Below are positions 45,963 to 54,413 of a DNA stretch of 64,000 nucleotides, one piece after another. How positions within the stretch are numbered: position 1 is the first letter of the stretch; the number at the start of each line of letters is the position of its first letter. The notes below the pieces were generated by a model, which saw only the letters and a list, made by a program, of their open reading frames with translations, was not told the DNA's origin and did not search any database. Location: positions 4,296 through 68,295 of the forward strand of contig NZ_JAPZSC010000058.1 of NCBI RefSeq assembly GCF_027531545.1. The letters run 5' to 3'. A program made the position numbers and the translations under genes. This DNA is from Silanimonas sp. Its GTDB lineage: Bacteria > Pseudomonadota > Gammaproteobacteria > Xanthomonadales > Xanthomonadaceae.

Positions 45963-46295
45963 ATGTACCAGCGTCTCGTCATCTTCGCGTGCCTGCTCGC
46001 CCTGATTCTGAGTCAGGTCGTGGCTTCGGCCGCGCCATTGGCGGAAATGACCTTGGAGGGCCTTGCCACCCCGGAAGCCCACTGCGCCGCGATGGCGGAG
46101 AACGTCGAGCAACCAGACGGCTCTACGTCTGAGCCTTGCACCTCGGCTTGCGAGGCGGCGTGCGCCGCCCCGGTTCTCGCGACCCTCACTAAGCCCAGGC
46201 TCACGTGCGGATCTCGCGCCGCACTCGTGGCTTCCAAACCAGCGGCCCTCGGCAGCCTCGCCAGTATCGTCGAACAGCGGCCTCCGATCGCCTAA
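45963..46295 (+). CDS. Small Cys-rich exported CopL/DUF2946-like leader protein ending RPPIA
   Basis: Hydrophobic N-terminus, CTSACEAAC, C-terminal EQRPPIA; no SD before ATG 45963. Confidence 0.65.
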   Translation: MYQRLVIFACLLALILSQVVASAAPLAEMTLEGLATPEAHCAAMAENVEQPDGSTSEPCTSACEAACAAPVLATLTKPRLTCGSRAALVASKPAALGSLASIVEQRPPIA

Positions 46296-46358
46296 CTCCA
46301 TTGGCCCCGCTGCGAACGCAGCGGCCCTGCCCTCCCGGGCTTCTGATGGAGTTTCTCG

Positions 46359-48024: not shown

Positions 48025-48055
48025 AGCGTGACCCTTCCCTTGGTGGGAAGGTCAA
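48025..48055 (-). promoter_or_regulatory. CueR-type promoter/operator for copZ
   Basis: Minus strand TTGACC-19 bp-CACGCT containing the dyad ACCTTCCC-N5-GGGAAGG. Confidence 0.85.
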
Positions 48056-48079
48056 GTTCGGCGGTCTTTGGGGGGGGGC

Positions 48080-48110
48080 TTGACCTTCCCATCATGGCAA
48101 GGCGGAGCCT
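48080..48110 (+). promoter_or_regulatory. CueR-type promoter/operator for copA-cueR
   Basis: TTGACC-19 bp-GAGCCT with the dyad ACCTTCCC-ATCAT-GGCAAGG. Confidence 0.8.
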
Positions 48111-48137
48111 AGGCTCCGACCGATGCGGAGAACGCCC

Positions 48138-50342
48138 ATGCCGAACGCTTTTTCGACTCCATCATCCCTGACCCTTGAGGTCGAGGGGATGACGTGTGCG
48201 TCCTGCGTGGGTCGTGTCGAATCCGCGCTCGCCAAAGTGCCTGGCGTAACCGAAGCCAGCGTAAACCTCGCAACGGATACCGCTCGTGTCGAGGGCACGA
48301 TTTCCGACGCGGAGGCGCTCTTGCGCGCTATCGAACGCGCTGGGTACACCGGTCGCGTCCGATCCGGGGTCGCCCCTCGGCCAGTGGACACGACCTCGTC
48401 GATGCTGCGTTGGCAATTGCTTGTCGCCAGCGCACTGACCTTGCCGCTGGTCGCGCCGATGCTGCTGATGCCCTTCGGCGTCCACGCCATGCTCCCCGGC
48501 GTCTGGCAGTGGGCGCTCGCCACACCCGTGCAGTTCTGGATCGGGGCGCGCTACTACCGCGGCGCCTGGTCAGCGGTTCGCTCCGGCAGCGCCAACATGG
48601 ACGTGCTGGTCGCGCTGGGCACCACGGCAGGTTATGGCTTGAGCGTCTGGCACCTGATCGATCCAAGAGCCGGATCGGGCGCGGCGCTCTACTTCGAAGC
48701 GTCGGCGGCGATCATCACTCTCGTGCTTCTGGGTAAATGGATGGAAGCTCGCGCGAAACGCGATGCGTCGGCCGCCATCCGGGCACTTCAGGACTTGCGA
48801 CCCGCATTGGCCTGCCTTGTGCAGGATGACGGCACCGAGGTGACGTGGCCGATCGAACGAGTACGTGCGGGTGATCGACTGGTGGTTCGGCCCGGTGAAC
48901 GCATTCCGGTCGATGGCGATCTCCTCGATGGGGAAACGCACGTCGACGAATCGATGCTGACGGGCGAGCCTTTGCCCGTCGTCAAGCTCGTCGGCGATCG
49001 GGTGACCGGCGGTTCGATAAACGGTGAAGGACGGCTGACCCTGGTGGCTCGGGCATCTGCAGCCGAGGGCACGCTCGCCCGAATCGTTCGTCTCGTCGAG
49101 GACGCCCAGCTTCGTAAGCCACCGATCCAGCGTTTGGTAGACCGGATCAGCGCCATCTTCGTGCCCGCCGTGGTGCTGATGGCTGTCGGAACTCTGATGG
49201 GCTGGGGCTTGGTCACCGGCGACTGGGAGCGTGCGCTGATCACCAGCGTGGCGGTGCTGGTGATCGCCTGTCCGTGCGCGTTGGGTCTGGCAACGCCTAC
49301 GGCGATCATGGCGGGCACCGGTCTGGCCGCCCGGGCAGGCATTTTGGTGCGCGACGCGGTGGCCTTGGAAGCAGCGCGCGATGTCCGCGTCGTCGCGTTC
49401 GACAAGACCGGCACCCTGACCGAAGGCCGCCCACGCTTGGCCGGCTTCTATCCGGCGGCCGGACCTCGCAGCGAGGCGCTGGCGCTCGCCGCAGCCGTGC
49501 AGCAGGGCAGCGAGCACCCGTTGGCGAAAGCGGTGGTCACGGCGGCGAAGGCCGAGGGGCTGGCCATTGGGAGCCCCGAGCAGGTGAAAGCCATCCCCGG
49601 CCGTGGCGTTGAGGCCGTGGTTGGCGGGGCGACGTACGCCCTGGGCAGCGGTCGGTGGATGGACGAGCTCGGCGTTGATCGCCAGCCCCTCATCGATGGC
49701 GCCGACGCGGCTGCGGCTCAGGGCATGAGCGTGTCGTGGTTGGCCGACGTCAGCGAAACAGAGCGTCGCCTTGTCGCGCTGATGGTGTTCGGCGATGCCC
49801 TTCGCCCGGAAGCCGTCGAGGCGATCGCGCTGCTGAAGGCCGACGGCATCCGCCCCGTGCTCGTCACGGGGGATCACGCCTTGGCAGCGGCCCACGTGGC
49901 GCAGGCGGTCGGCATCGCTGCCGAGGACGTGCATGCCGGCGTGCTGCCGGAAGGCAAAGCGACCGTGGTCGCGGACCTCGCCCGGCATGGCTCGGTCGCC
50001 ATGGTGGGCGACGGCATCAACGACGCGCCGGCGCTGGCCGCGGCGCGGGTCGGCATGGCGATGGGATCGGGCACCGACGTCGCCATGGAGACGGCGGGGA
50101 TCACCCTGATGCGCGGCGACCCGCGCCTGGTGACCGACGCGCTGGATTTGTCGCGACGCACGGTCCGCAAGATGCGCCAGAACCTGTTCTGGGCGTTCGT
50201 CTACAACGCCGTCGGCATTCCGTTGGCCGCCGCCGGCCTGCTCAATCCAATCGTGGCCGCCGCCGCAATGGCACTGTCTAGCGTCAGCGTGGTCGGCAAT
50301 ACACTACTGCTCAAGCGCTGGACCCCGAGGAGCGAACGATGA
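48138..50342 (+). CDS. copA: Cu(I)-exporting P1B-1 ATPase
   Basis: [31 protein letters not shown] and MALSS. Confidence 0.95.
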
Positions 50343-50782
50343 CGCGGCGAGCCGATCGACTCGTCCCCGTGCCGAGTGGACCCCACACCATCGGGGAGGC
50401 GGCGGCGGCGTCCGGCGTGTCGGCCAAGATGATCCGGCACTACGAGGCGATGGGGCTGATACCGGCCGCGGCGCGCACGGACAGCAACTACCGCCTCTAC
50501 GCGAACGCGGACGTGCATCGGCTCCGCTTCATCAAGCGCGCCCGGCTGCTGGGGTTCTCGATGAAGCAGATCGAGGTCCTGCTCGGGCTGTGGGCGGACC
50601 CAGGGCGCAGCAGTCGCGAGGTCAAGACCTTGGCCCTCGCGCACGCCGACGAGCTCGAGGCGCGAATCCGCGAGATGGCGGCGATGCGCGACACGCTGCT
50701 GGATTTGGCCCGGAACTGCCGCGGCGACAGCCGCCCGGACTGCCCAATCCTGGCCGACCTGGCTCAGCCGGGTGGCGCTTAA
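50339..50782 (+). CDS. cueR: Cu(I)-responsive MerR-family regulator CueR
   Basis: [18 protein letters not shown]...YRLY; C-terminal [12 protein letters not shown]; ATGA overlap with copA. Confidence 0.93.
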
Positions 50783-50807
50783 CGTATGCCGATGTAGACT
50801 TGGGCCC

Positions 50808-51224
50808 ATGTCACCCGTCCGCACCCTGCTGCACCTGCTCCTCGCTGTGATCCTCGTGATCAACGGCGTTGCTGGCGTGGCCATGGCGGCGGGCATGGCT
50901 GGCCACGGGGCACCTGCGGATGCTCCGGCGGCTCTGGCATCCGAAACCCATGGCGGCTGCCACGACAGCGTCGCCGCAGCCCCAGCAGAAGCGGCAGACC
51001 ATCACTCCAGTGCCGCCACCGACTGCTGCGAGGACGGGCGCTGCGCTTGCGCCTGCATCCACCACGGCACCGTCGTGCTGGCCTCCGTCCCGCCGGTGGT
51101 GGTGGTGGCCGTTTGGCCGCCGGTGGCGGCACTCGATGTGACCGCGGCGTCCAGCGCGCCGCGCTCCCCCGGCCTCCGACCACCGATCGCACCGATCCTC
51201 CTGAGCGGGCGCCAAGCCCGCTGA
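50808..51224 (+). CDS. copL: CopL-family metal-binding leader protein
   Basis: Signal-like N-terminus; GGCHD...DCCEDGRCACACIHH; LRPPI near the C-terminus; heads the copper operon. Confidence 0.75.
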   Translation: MSPVRTLLHLLLAVILVINGVAGVAMAAGMAGHGAPADAPAALASETHGGCHDSVAAAPAEAADHHSSAATDCCEDGRCACACIHHGTVVLASVPPVVVVAVWPPVAALDVTAASSAPRSPGLRPPIAPILLSGRQAR

Positions 51225-51291
51225 ACGCCCCTGCCTGTCGTCGGACAGGCGGATGACGCGGCTCTCTTGCCGCTGAGTTCCGGAGACCACC

Positions 51292-53079
51292 ATGAATCCT
51301 TTGTTTCGCCGCAGCGCTCTGGCTGTGGCTCTCGCCTCCCTTTTGGGGGGCTGCGCTTCCCTGTCCCCACGCCCTGATGACGCTCAGGTCAATCGCCTGC
51401 TGGAAGCGCGGGGCGCACCGGCCCTGACGAAAATGGCCGCCGACGAGCCGCTGATCGACCTTCGCGAACGCCTTGCCGCACCCATCGACCGGGATCGCGC
51501 CGTCGCCATTGCCTTGCTGCGCAGTCCGCGCATGCGCGAGGCCTATGCCCGCTTGGGTCTCGCCCGCGCCGAGGTGATCGAAGCCGTGGAAGTGGCGAAC
51601 CCCGGCGTGTCCTTTGCCCGGATGAATCTGAGCCCTAGCGCCGGGTACAACCAGACCGTGGGGGTATCGCTGCCGTTCGTCGACGTGCTGCTTCTGCCGG
51701 TTCGCACGCGCTGGGCCCGACAGCAGTACGAGCGTCACAGCATCGAAGTGGCGCAGGCTGTAATCGGCCTGACCGTTGAGGTGGAGGCGGCGTGGTATCG
51801 GGCCGTCGCGGCACAGCAGGTCGCTGACATGCGCTCCGCCGTCGCTGAGGGCGCGGACGCCACCGCCGAGCTGGCGCAGCGCTTCTATGACGCCGGCAAC
51901 ATCAGCGAGCTGCAGCTCAAGCGCGAGCAGGCGGTGGCGACCCAGTTCCGCATCGATGCCGCCCAAGCGCGTTCCGACGCGCTGCGTGAGCGCCTCGCGT
52001 TCGGCAACCTGCTGGGCTTGAGTGCCGCGGATGGCGAGTGGTCGCTGGCCGATCGTCTCCCGATGCCCGTCACCGCGGAGGACGACGCCGAGGCGCTGGT
52101 TCGACTGGCGGAATCGTCGAACCTCGAGCTGCAGGCCGCTCGACTGCAGGAAAGCCAGCTGCGGTCGGCGCTACGCACCACCCGCGCCACGCGCTGGTTC
52201 GGCGGGGTCGAGGCCGGGGCGGAGCGCGAAAAAGACGCCGACGGATCGCGGCTGACTGGCCCGACCCTGAGTCTGCAACTGCCGCTGTTCAACCAGGGCC
52301 AGGGCAAGCTCGCTCGGGCCGAGGCGCTGGTCGCGGAAGCCCGAGCCCGAGTGCAGCTCGCCGAGCTCAATGCCACGAACGCGGTGCGCACCGGATCGCG
52401 CGCGTTGGAGGAGCACCGCCAGATCGTCGCCCTGCATCGCAACGCGCTGATTCCGCAGCGCGAGCGCATCGTCGAACGCAGCCAGCAAGAGCAGAACTTC
52501 ATGCTGATCGGCGTGTTCGAGCTCGTGCAGGCGAAGGTCGATGAGTACGACGCCTACCAGAGCTACCTGGAAGCGGTACGCGACTACTGGCTGGCCCGCG
52601 TCGAGCTGATGCAGGCCGTGGGTCAACGACTGCCGAGCGACGCGGCAGCGAGCCAGCCCACGCCGAGCGTGCAGGACATCCTGACGCCGAAGGGCGGCAT
52701 GCCGGGCATGGATCACGGTGCGATGTCGGGCATGGATCACGGCGCCCACGCGCCCGCAGCGGCCACGACCTCGAAGGACGGCATGAAGGAAATGGAAGGC
52801 ATGGACCACAGCCAGCATGGCGAAACGGCGCCGCCGTCAGAAACCTCGATGGATGGCATGGACCACAGCGGTCATCCCCCTGCCGCGCCCGAGCCGGCTG
52901 CGACCCCCGGGGACGGCATGAAGGGGATGGAAGGCATGGACCACAGCGCCCACGGTGCGCCATCGGCCCCCGTGCCGCCGGAAGACAAAGCCGACGCCGC
53001 CCAACCTAAAAACGGCACGCCCGAAGACGACCACCACCAGCACGACCACCACGACGGTGGTCAGGGAGAAACGCCATGA
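51292..53079 (+). CDS. TolC-family outer membrane lipoprotein with Met/His-rich tail
   Basis: Lipobox LGGC; GPTLSLQLPLFNQGQG, YFQ-type helices; C-terminal GMDH repeats. Confidence 0.88.
   Translation: MNPLFRRSALAVALASLLGGCASLSPRPDDAQVNRLLEARGAPALTKMAADEPLIDLRERLAAPIDRDRAVAIALLRSPRMREAYARLGLARAEVIEAVEVANPGVSFARMNLSPSAGYNQTVGVSLPFVDVLLLPVRTRWARQQYERHSIEVAQAVIGLTVEVEAAWYRAVAAQQVADMRSAVAEGADATAELAQRFYDAGNISELQLKREQAVATQFRIDAAQARSDALRERLAFGNLLGLSAADGEWSLADRLPMPVTAEDDAEALVRLAESSNLELQAARLQESQLRSALRTTRATRWFGGVEAGAEREKDADGSRLTGPTLSLQLPLFNQGQGKLARAEALVAEARARVQLAELNATNAVRTGSRALEEHRQIVALHRNALIPQRERIVERSQQEQNFMLIGVFELVQAKVDEYDAYQSYLEAVRDYWLARVELMQAVGQRLPSDAAASQPTPSVQDILTPKGGMPGMDHGAMSGMDHGAHAPAAATTSKDGMKEMEGMDHSQHGETAPPSETSMDGMDHSGHPPAAPEPAATPGDGMKGMEGMDHSAHGAPSAPVPPEDKADAAQPKNGTPEDDHHQHDHHDGGQGETP
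52705..52955 (+). repeat. Five MDH-encoding repeats in the TolC tail
   Basis: GGCATGGATCACGG at 52705 and 52729; GACGGCATGAAGG...GAAGGCATGGACCACAGC at 52777 and 52912; GATGGCATGGACCACAGC at 52852. Confidence 0.85.
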
Positions 53080-54413
53080 GCACCATGTCCCGACGCGATC
53101 TGCTGCGCACCGCCGGTGTCGGCCTGGCCGGCGCGGCCGCCACCGGCCTTGTCGTTGCGCAGGACCATGCTGGCCACGCCGAACACGGGGCAACGCCTGC
53201 CGCTCCGATCGCGCCCGAGCGCCGCGGCGCCGGGCGCTCCGGCAAGGTCCGCACCTTGAACGGCTGGACGCTGCCTTACCGCATGAATGGCGGAGTCAAG
53301 GAGTTCCACCTCGTCGCGGAAGAGTTCGAACACGAGTTCGCGCCGGGCTCGAAGGCGATCTGCTGGGGCTACAACGGCAGCACGCCGGGCCCGACCATCG
53401 AAGCCGTCGAAGGCGATCGCGTGCGAATTTTCGTGACGAATCGACTGAAGGAGGCCACCACCATCCATTGGCATGGCCTGATCCTGCCGTCGGGCATGGA
53501 CGGCGTAGGCGGTCTTTCCCAGCCGCAGATCGGTCCGGGCGAGACCTACGTCTACGAGTTCACCCTGCAGCAGCACGGCACGCACATGTACCACCCGCAT
53601 GCCGATGAAATGGTGCAACTGGCCATGGGCATGATGGGGCTCTTCATCATCCATCCGAAGGGCGAGGACCCGGCGCCGGTCGACCGCGACTATGCCTTCC
53701 TGATCCACAACTTCGCACTGCATCCCGGCACGCGACGCCCGGACCCCGCGATCATGCAGGACTTCGACCTGTGGACCTTCAACTCGAAGGTGTTCCCGGC
53801 GATCGATTCGATCGTGGCGCGTACCGGCGAGCGCGTGCGGATTCGCATGGGCAATCTGAGCATGTGGAATCACCCGATCCACCTGCACGGCGTGCAGTTC
53901 CACGTCACGGGTGGCGATGGCGGGCGGTGGCCGCGTAACCAGTGGCGCTCGGAGGTGACTGAGATCATCGGCGTCGGCCAGATGCGCGACATCGAATTCA
54001 CTGCCGTACCGGGTGACTGGGCGTTCCACTGCCACATGTCGCATCACACGATGGGGCCGATGGGCCACGACATTCCGAACACGCTGGGCGTCAATCAGCG
54101 CGGGGTCGAAGAGCGCATCCGCAAGATGCTTCCTGGCTACATGGCCATGGGCGAGTTCGGCATGGCCGAGCACCAGAAGCACACCGACAGCGGCCACATG
54201 CAGGGACCGCCGAACACGCTGGCGATGATGGCCGGCAACGGTCCGTTCGGACCGCTGGAGATGGGCGGGATGTTCACTGTGGTGAAGGTTCGCGACGACC
54301 TGCGTCCGGGCGATTACAGCGACCCGGGCTGGTACCGGAACCCCGCCGGCACGGTGGCGCGAAAAGTCAGCGCTGACCCCAGCTTCGGCAACCCGCCGCG
54401 TCGTCCCCGCTAA
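53076..54413 (+). CDS. Tat-exported two-domain multicopper oxidase
   Basis: SRRDLL Tat motif; HWH, HPH, HPIHLH, HCHMSHHTMGPM. Confidence 0.92.
   Translation: MSTMSRRDLLRTAGVGLAGAAATGLVVAQDHAGHAEHGATPAAPIAPERRGAGRSGKVRTLNGWTLPYRMNGGVKEFHLVAEEFEHEFAPGSKAICWGYNGSTPGPTIEAVEGDRVRIFVTNRLKEATTIHWHGLILPSGMDGVGGLSQPQIGPGETYVYEFTLQQHGTHMYHPHADEMVQLAMGMMGLFIIHPKGEDPAPVDRDYAFLIHNFALHPGTRRPDPAIMQDFDLWTFNSKVFPAIDSIVARTGERVRIRMGNLSMWNHPIHLHGVQFHVTGGDGGRWPRNQWRSEVTEIIGVGQMRDIEFTAVPGDWAFHCHMSHHTMGPMGHDIPNTLGVNQRGVEERIRKMLPGYMAMGEFGMAEHQKHTDSGHMQGPPNTLAMMAGNGPFGPLEMGGMFTVVKVRDDLRPGDYSDPGWYRNPAGTVARKVSADPSFGNPPRRPR

Follow-up and report, generated by a model that had tools for sequence, protein, structure and literature searches.

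CopL and Related Leader Proteins

CopL of the Xanthomonas copLAB genes has reportedly been studied by Voloudakis et al. 2005 and de Freitas et al. 2019.

A leader protein that is described in mechanistic terms is CutF of the Rhodobacter capsulatus cutFOG operon (Ozturk et al., mBio 2023; PMC9973294). In that report, CutF, with fewer than 150 amino acids, combines a Sec-type signal with a Cys motif and a Pro-rich motif at its C-terminus. CutF acts exclusively in cis, and both its translation and its export are needed; furthermore, a stem-loop shields the Shine-Dalgarno (SD) sequence of the next gene, and a copper-dependent, stalling-like delay was described. CopL appears as a labelled node (cluster 29) in the network of CutF-like proteins, in which outer-membrane efflux proteins (OEP) are the commonest downstream neighbours. 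Expression of the genes downstream of Xanthomonas copL depends on copL in cis and, because copL fails in trans like cutF, CopL and CutF were proposed to be isofunctional (PMC9973294). The preliminary description of the locus discussed here had regarded the mechanism of Xanthomonas copL as unresolved; this view does not stand, as the mechanism of CutF has been shown and CopL has been placed in the CutF-like network (PMC9973294).

A further well-worked example is the copper-sensing upstream open reading frame CruR (Bp2923, DUF2946) of Bordetella pertussis, which must be translated for the downstream gene to be expressed (Roy et al., mBio 2022; PMC9426467). As in CopL, the spacing between a Cys motif and a C-terminal motif is conserved in CruR, where it amounts to 45 residues (CXXC-RAPP). 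SecM, ApdA and ApdP resemble CopL in having an Arg-Pro motif at the C-terminus of a small exported protein and, as proposed for CopL, expose the SD of the next gene; however, their core is R-A/G-P-P or RAGP with a Pro in the A site, and the register of RPPI differs from this (PMC12992588). In addition, these proteins sense the status of protein export and not a metal.

The copL Locus of Silanimonas sp. and Its CueR Context

The window, i.e., the stretch of 64,000 nt from Silanimonas sp. to which all coordinates refer, contains the copper P-type ATPase gene copA (48123-50342, + strand), followed by cueR (50339-50782, + strand; TIGR02044 equivalog, 154.8 bits with a cut-off of 147.4), which is located directly upstream of copL (50808-51224, + strand). 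The next gene encodes a TolC-like OEP, an outer-membrane efflux lipoprotein (51292-53079, + strand; PF02321, E = 9e-28), and its stop overlaps by 4 nt with the gene for a TAT multicopper oxidase (53076-54413, + strand). Further downstream, the open reading frame list and profile matches place a cytochrome c, a SnoaL-like protein and a second P-type ATPase. Comparison of the flanks revealed that the order copL-OEP-multicopper oxidase-cytochrome c is kept in relatives. The spacer between copL and the OEP gene has a length of 67 nt, compared with 86 to 88 nt in relatives, and an OEP gene on the + strand after a 67-nt gap agrees with the CutF-like criterion on downstream gene and spacer. The OEP gene is most likely the regulated target of copL, whereas the target of CutF is directly a multicopper oxidase and the gene following Xanthomonas copL encodes the TAT multicopper oxidase CopA.

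It had been stated that no CueR box precedes the operon. This is correct for the approximately 100 nt immediately 5' of copL, but not at the scale of the operon: 25 nt separate the end of cueR (50782) from the ATG of copL, and two CueR-type operators are found as inverted repeats in the copZ/copA divergent promoter region (48033-48056 and 48079-48102). They follow the pattern TTGACCTTCCC-N5-GGnAAGG and read CCTTCCC-N5-GGGAAGG and CTTGACCTTCCCATCATGGCAAGG. With cueR adjoining copL on its 5' side and a pair of CueR boxes in front of copA-cueR, the copL operon is not free of a regulator, which corrects the idea that a copper regulator is missing from the copL-OEP operon. A consensus scan detected no terminator-like site between the cueR stop and copL, and read-through from the CueR-dependent promoter of copA-cueR probably extends into copL as well, which would constitute a second source of transcript. 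A plasmid search returned cueR as its sole match. The two operators have opposite orientation and are flanked by a minus-strand copZ-like gene on one side and by copA on the other; nine consecutive Gs (48070-48078) separate them. In some relatives (L038:3357-4000 and L040:1-463), the sequence 5' of copL resembles the 3' end of cueR without a called cueR gene, and may be a cueR remnant.

The CopL Protein

CopL of the window is a protein of 138 amino acids, which matches the CopL family profile NF033807 (CopL_fam) over model positions 1-129 with 71.8 bits (cut-off 40). A whole-genome profile search gave 71.5 bits and identified this protein as the sole copy above the cut-off in the genome. The open reading frame 50808-51224 is a genuine small leader gene of the known CopL/CutF-like family. 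For comparison, 12 relatives with protein identities between 42 and 97% were retrieved with their flanks, which together with the window copy form a clade set of 13 sequences; the wider family was represented by 89 proteins after clustering at 50%, and loci were compared in 30 CopL loci from genomes of the same order, with codon and SD counts made on 32 unique loci. A Pfam search of CopL (P0001) gave no match at E<=10, DUF2946 (PF11162) included, and two other CopL representatives likewise had no Pfam match at this threshold. Membership of CopL in the DUF2946/CruR family was rejected, as there is no PF11162 match and the motifs are CxCxC and RPPI instead of CXXC and RAPP.

The first approximately 27 residues of CopL are hydrophobic and are followed by AMA-AG (MSPVRTLLHLLLAVILVINGVAGVAMA-AG; 50808-50894, + strand). 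The Kyte-Doolittle mean over 19 residues reaches 2.45, and the core LL(R/H)LLL...L(V)xNG is kept in most family representatives. The N-terminus is thus signal-like, a candidate signal peptide judged from hydropathy alone. It precedes a Cys/His cluster of the metal-binding type (50958-51065, + strand), which had been noted before as a CC/CxCxC/HH cluster and which comprises C51, HH at residues 65-66 and 85-86, CC at residues 73-74 and CACAC at residues 79-83; within the window's clade, C51, C73 and the sequence DGRCACAC do not vary. The Cys motif of CopL, CC-x4-CxCxC with additional His pairs, differs from the CxxxC motif of CutF. With regard to the other CutF-like filters, CopL lies within the size limit (138 versus <150 amino acids), its spacer agrees with the spacer filter, and P125-P126, at positions 14 and 13 counted from the C-terminus, fall within the last 15 residues in which a PP is expected; however, this placement is borderline because of an extra C in the gene, described below. 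Past the Cys cluster and before RPPI, there is a second hydrophobic stretch (VVLASVPPVVVVAVWPPVAAL, Kyte-Doolittle value of about 1.9; residues 87-108, 51066-51131), which would occupy the ribosomal tunnel during decoding of RPP.

Spacing and Codons of the RPPI Motif

The arrest-like motif LRPPI, reported earlier at 51174-51188 (+ strand), is found there as residues 123-127, encoded by CTC CGA CCA CCG ATC. Alignment of the C-termini showed that RPP is C-terminal in 87 of the 89 family representatives, mostly as I/L-RPPI, and at each of the 30 CopL loci from the same order, a single residue separates RPPI from the stop. Among the 87 proteins with a C-terminal RPP, 63 have its Arg 40 residues after the last Cys and 14 have it 39 residues after (77/87 together); in the window, LRPPI is placed 40 residues after C83. 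From this fixed spacing, the Cys cluster would be located near the ribosomal exit while RPP is decoded. RPP is followed by two residues in 62 representatives and by five in 14, and the latter are the window's clade with the tail LRPPIAxIS. The RPPI tail also distinguishes CopL from CutF. RPPI does not conform to a RAPP-like core, as it reads L-R-P-P-I and not R-(A/G)-P-P or RAGP; since it differs from the RAPP and RGPP cores for which arrest was shown, arrest at RPPI is treated here as putative.

The motif is also constrained in its codons. The nucleotides encoding LRPPI are invariant in the window's clade. Across the 32 unique loci, the Arg of RPP is encoded by CGA in 23, compared with 4.3% of the Arg codons in neighbouring genes, and the first Pro by CCT or CCA in 31 (background 6.7% and 6.9%, respectively), while CCC or CCG is used for the second Pro; these counts overstate independence, as the loci are related, yet several genera and subfamilies are represented. 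At most canonical loci, the Pro-Pro codons CCU-CCN themselves form the CUCC partner of the downstream GGAG. By contrast, the Pro-Pro codons of the window's clade are CCA-CCS (CCA CCG in the window), and the CUCC segments are located directly beside them.

The window copy deviates from its relatives by an extra C at 51197/51198: it reads GATCCTCC, while all 12 relatives, including a MAG copy with 97% identity at the protein level, have GATCTCC. Because of the extra C, the ancestral TGA (51202-51204) is out of frame, and the stop is shifted seven codons downstream to the TGA at 51222-51224 in the 3' arm of hairpin 1 (see below). The window copy is thereby the lone outlier in tail length among the 89 representatives, with 12 residues after RPP; counted from RPPI, 11 residues precede the stop, compared with four in the window's clade and one in canonical Xanthomonas-type proteins. 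RPPI and both CUCC segments remain intact. The extra C reflects either an error in the sequence or a mutation of recent date, and the window copy may be impaired by it.

Hairpins and Predicted Masking of the OEP Shine-Dalgarno Sequence

Three hairpins are predicted upstream of the OEP SD (GGAG, 51282-51285, + strand; ATG at 51292), as had been noted. Hairpin 1 (51204-51222; 7 bp, -15.2 kcal/mol) overlaps with its 3' arm the displaced stop codon, hairpin 2 (9 bp, -17.3 kcal/mol) extends over 51231-51252 rather than 51233-51250, and hairpin 3 (5 bp, -10.6 kcal/mol) covers 51258-51273; all are on the + strand. The fold of the 141-nt region has a z-score of -3.28, and 1 of 200 shuffled sequences folds as well. 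All three hairpins are conserved in the 12 relatives, with variable loops and a few compensatory changes. The stem of hairpin 1 is almost invariant, while its loop varies. In hairpin 2, two pairs are altered in both arms with pairing retained, 100% of cells are paired, and in one relative (L053) its stem is swapped for GCCCGG/CCGGGC; the same relative has an A-U in place of a G-C pair in hairpin 3, in which 98% of cells are paired. CopL of the window shares with Xanthomonas CopL not only the NF033807 match, the RPPI tail and the Cys-to-RPP spacing, but also a multi-hairpin spacer before GGAG. Attenuation by an intrinsic terminator was considered and rejected, since none of the three hairpins is followed by a U-run. 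A consensus scan called no sigma-70 promoter or terminator in or around the copL-OEP spacer, and an Rfam scan of 50600-51500 gave a match at chance level only.

The properties of the spacer also bear on a CruR-type mechanism, according to which a stalled ribosome shields the transcript from Rho and a copper-dependent release terminates transcription before the OEP gene. CruR provides a precedent, as it is a leader that senses copper and its Cys motif is spaced by a conserved 45 residues from an arrest motif at the C-terminus (PMC9426467); arrest has been shown by toeprinting (PMC12992588). However, CruR has the motifs RAPP and CXXC and a spacer of 162 nt with Rho-dependent termination, compared with the 67 nt (86-88 nt in relatives) found here, which are filled with three strong G+C hairpins and in which C (25) barely exceeds G (21), making a poor rut site. 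Furthermore, CruR acts independently of the signal peptide, and copper relieves its arrest and represses an import gene, whereas detoxification genes downstream of copL should be induced by copper, and CopL lacks a DUF2946 match. Rho/rut-dependent termination was discarded as the main mechanism in view of the short and structured spacer, which is not rich in C, and the CruR-type reading is regarded as highly improbable.

The SD of the OEP gene is predicted to pair with the end of the copL coding region, for which two partners exist. Segment A (CUCCG, 51174-51178, + strand) pairs with CGGAG (51281-51285) in the minimum free energy fold of the window sequence, whereas segment B (GAUCCUCC, 51194-51201, + strand; GAUCUCC in relatives), which contains the extra C, pairs with GGAGAUC according to RNAalifold on 10 clade sequences. 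The latter analysis gave a four-helix junction, in which GAUCUCC/GGAGAUC encloses the three hairpins and GAUCUCC corresponds to the two sense codons directly preceding the ancestral stop. Pairing in the clade consensus amounts to 97.9% of cells, compared with 35 to 53% in controls with slid partners; the middle hairpin contains two compensatory pairs, and the observed covariation score was reached by 5 of 500 shuffles. When closer copies and a Rubrivivax copy were added, the consensus flipped to CUCCG, located in the Leu-Arg codons, and a third compensatory pair appeared in hairpin 3; segment A is also the closing helix picked by RNAalifold on 13 clade sequences. Which segment is paired with the SD in RNAalifold hence depends on the sequence set. 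The closing helix itself shows no covariation, because both of its arms are invariant, being constrained by coding or by SD function. CopL thereby differs from CutF, for which one stem-loop has been described, in having three hairpins and two alternative anti-SD segments in its coding end.

Two anti-SD segments flanking the RPPI codons are present in every clade member, and the two fall within the approximately 28 nt that a ribosome with its P site on the second Pro occupies. The predicted probability that the OEP SD of the window is unpaired is 0.01 in the free RNA and 0.73 with a footprint on RPP, compared with 0.00 with a footprint on the displaced stop. The effect is weak in the wider family, in which a footprint on RPP raises the mean accessibility of the SD only from 0.12 to 0.26. 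The SD downstream of copL has a median unpaired probability of 0.06 at the 32 loci, compared with 0.27 for 400 SD-led genes of this genome, and values below 0.1 were found at 19 of the 32 loci and for 18% of the background genes. In a duplex-rank test, the 3' end of copL did not consistently come out as the best partner of the SD: the median fraction of 30-nt windows forming a better duplex is 0.25, and many CUCC-like partners exist in the G+C-rich sequence.

The synonymous-codon constraint at RPP and the placement of the anti-SD segments favour a role at the level of ribosome and RNA over one in which CopL acts in trans as a metal-binding regulator or chaperone and the hairpins serve mRNA stability or processing. 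A trans-acting CopL would be in keeping with the NCBIfam family name, "metal-binding regulatory protein", and with several papers that call copL a transcriptional activator (PMC10312155), and removal of the stem-loop in cutFOG also altered mRNA stability. However, trans complementation failed for Xanthomonas copL and for cutF, as described in the CutF report (PMC9973294), and exported CutF is quickly degraded. A function in trans is therefore considered very unlikely.

A Candidate Leaderless Start of copL

A -10 box just before an ATG that lacks an SD is the classical signature of a leaderless mRNA. The preliminary description had proposed such a start for copL, and this idea has gained strong support from the comparison of loci. 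The -10-like hexamer TAGACT (50795-50800, + strand), a candidate leaderless copL promoter, is located 7 nt before the ATG at 50808, and GGAG, GAGG and AGGA are absent upstream of this ATG. TAGACT (TAGAAT in L050) is found 6 to 7 nt 5' of an SD-less ATG in all 13 clade sequences, although the nucleotides between box and ATG vary, and it is kept where the upstream gene is not cueR but, e.g., a thioredoxin gene (L045, L050). The pattern TAnnnT occurs 6 to 10 nt before an SD-less ATG at 24 of 30 family loci, or 24 of the 25 with an assignable ATG start, whereas such a placement is seen for 0.2% of the SD-led genes and 1.4% of any long open ATG in the genome. Xanthomonas-type loci (L004-L009) differ from the window in lacking an ATG-adjacent -10 box; they have a probable GTG start and a TATGCT approximately 30 nt upstream. 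In L043 (811-816), the TAG of TAGACT doubles as the stop codon of a longer cueR of 155 amino acids.

Judged from these sequence features, the -10 box in front of copL probably drives transcription of a leaderless mRNA. It is also conceivable that copL is not leaderless but an internal gene of a copA-cueR-copL transcript controlled solely by CueR, and that TAGACT is kept for another reason. The 25-nt gap between cueR and copL without a terminator would suit such a transcript, and so would the use of the TAG as cueR stop codon in L043. In addition, no convincing -35 element was found upstream of TAGACT, the candidate GTGGCG having 3 of 6 matches, and the sigma-70 consensus scan missed TAGACT because of this weak -35. 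On the other hand, the box stays 6 to 7 nt from the ATG despite the variable intervening nucleotides, it is present without cueR at L045 and L050 and recurs in unrelated copL subfamilies with other upstream genes, and an SD-less internal ATG would otherwise be poor at initiation. We therefore regard an exclusively internal copL as rather unlikely and retain a leaderless mRNA from the -10 box as the preferred start.

A Putative Mechanism of OEP Expression

With moderate confidence, copL is considered a cis-acting leader gene of the CopL/CutF-like type, which heads an OEP-multicopper oxidase-cytochrome c operon and whose translation unmasks the ribosome binding site of the OEP gene. A leaderless copL mRNA would be produced from its own -10 box, in addition to read-through from the copA-cueR promoter. 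The OEP SD of free mRNA would be paired with one of the two CUCC segments, thereby closing the three-hairpin junction. Translation of copL would give rise to a nascent peptide bearing the hydrophobic, signal-like N-terminus and the Cys/His cluster, and RPPI would be decoded by means of the rare codons CGA CCA exactly 40 residues past the last Cys. A ribosome dwelling on RPP might then cover both CUCC segments, so that the SD is set free and the OEP gene is translated, and translation of the oxidase could follow via the 4-nt stop/start overlap. CutF is described as operating in just this manner (PMC9973294). By analogy with CutF, binding of copper to the emerging Cys cluster may lengthen the dwell at RPP, in which case copper would act in the inducing direction.

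A simpler reading would be plain translational coupling, with CopL as an exported or membrane-bound metal-binding protein and copper control exerted only via CueR at the upstream promoter. Sequestration of the SD by the 3' end of the upstream reading frame would suffice for coupling, cueR and two CueR operators are present upstream with no terminator before copL, and the Pro-rich tail of CutF by itself gave no arrest (PMC9973294). Coupling leaves unexplained, however, why the RPPI tail is near-universal, why Cys and RPP are spaced by 39 to 40 residues and why the motif is encoded by rare codons; furthermore, L045 and L050 retain the whole design without an adjacent cueR. Plain coupling is thus judged unlikely, and translation of copL up to RPP as the unmasking event remains the favoured reading.

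The notion that CopL-type genes are cis translational attenuators, put forward in the preliminary description, accordingly fits the RPPI tail, the Cys-to-RPP spacing, the sequestered SD and the anti-SD segments in the ribosome footprint, but it has already been published; copL is a well-documented further example and not a new principle. CopL in front of an OEP gene represents a supported example of the proposed nascent-peptide sensing of metals in the commonest CutF-like setting. Neither the leaderless signature nor the constraint on synonymous codons nor the dual placement of anti-SD segments is mentioned in the accessible parts of the CutF and CruR papers, and the first two, the codon constraint as a rare-codon bias, set CopL apart from CutF as described there (PMC9973294). 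The leaderless signature, the rare RPP codons and an anti-SD at the putative pause site provide family-wide handles on Xanthomonas-type copper resistance.

It is tempting to speculate, though with some doubt, that CopL is a codon-dependent, position-sensing variant of CutF with a leaderless mRNA, an arrest site fixed at the nucleotide level (CGA-CCW-CCS-AUC) by codons that are rare in these G+C-rich genomes, and an anti-SD on or beside this site. As the mRNA would be leaderless, the first ribosome would load at the 5' end and trail the polymerase, and with the anti-SD at the RPP codons, the SD would be freed only by a ribosome held at RPP and not by a terminating one. If such a variant exists, synonymous changes at RPP would break regulation.

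The First RPPI Leader of the Island

The same plan of leader, RPPI and hairpin had been described as occurring twice in the island, which agrees with the present analysis. The first RPPI leader (45963-46295) ends in QRPPIA and a stop (CAG CGG CCT CCG ATC GCC TAA), and it has no match to NF033807 or any Pfam family. The SD of its next gene (GGAG, 46348-46351) is predicted to pair with AACUCCAU, at and just past the stop codon. This pairing encloses a hairpin (46307-46324) and a short stem of 4 bp, and the fold has a z-score of -2.41.
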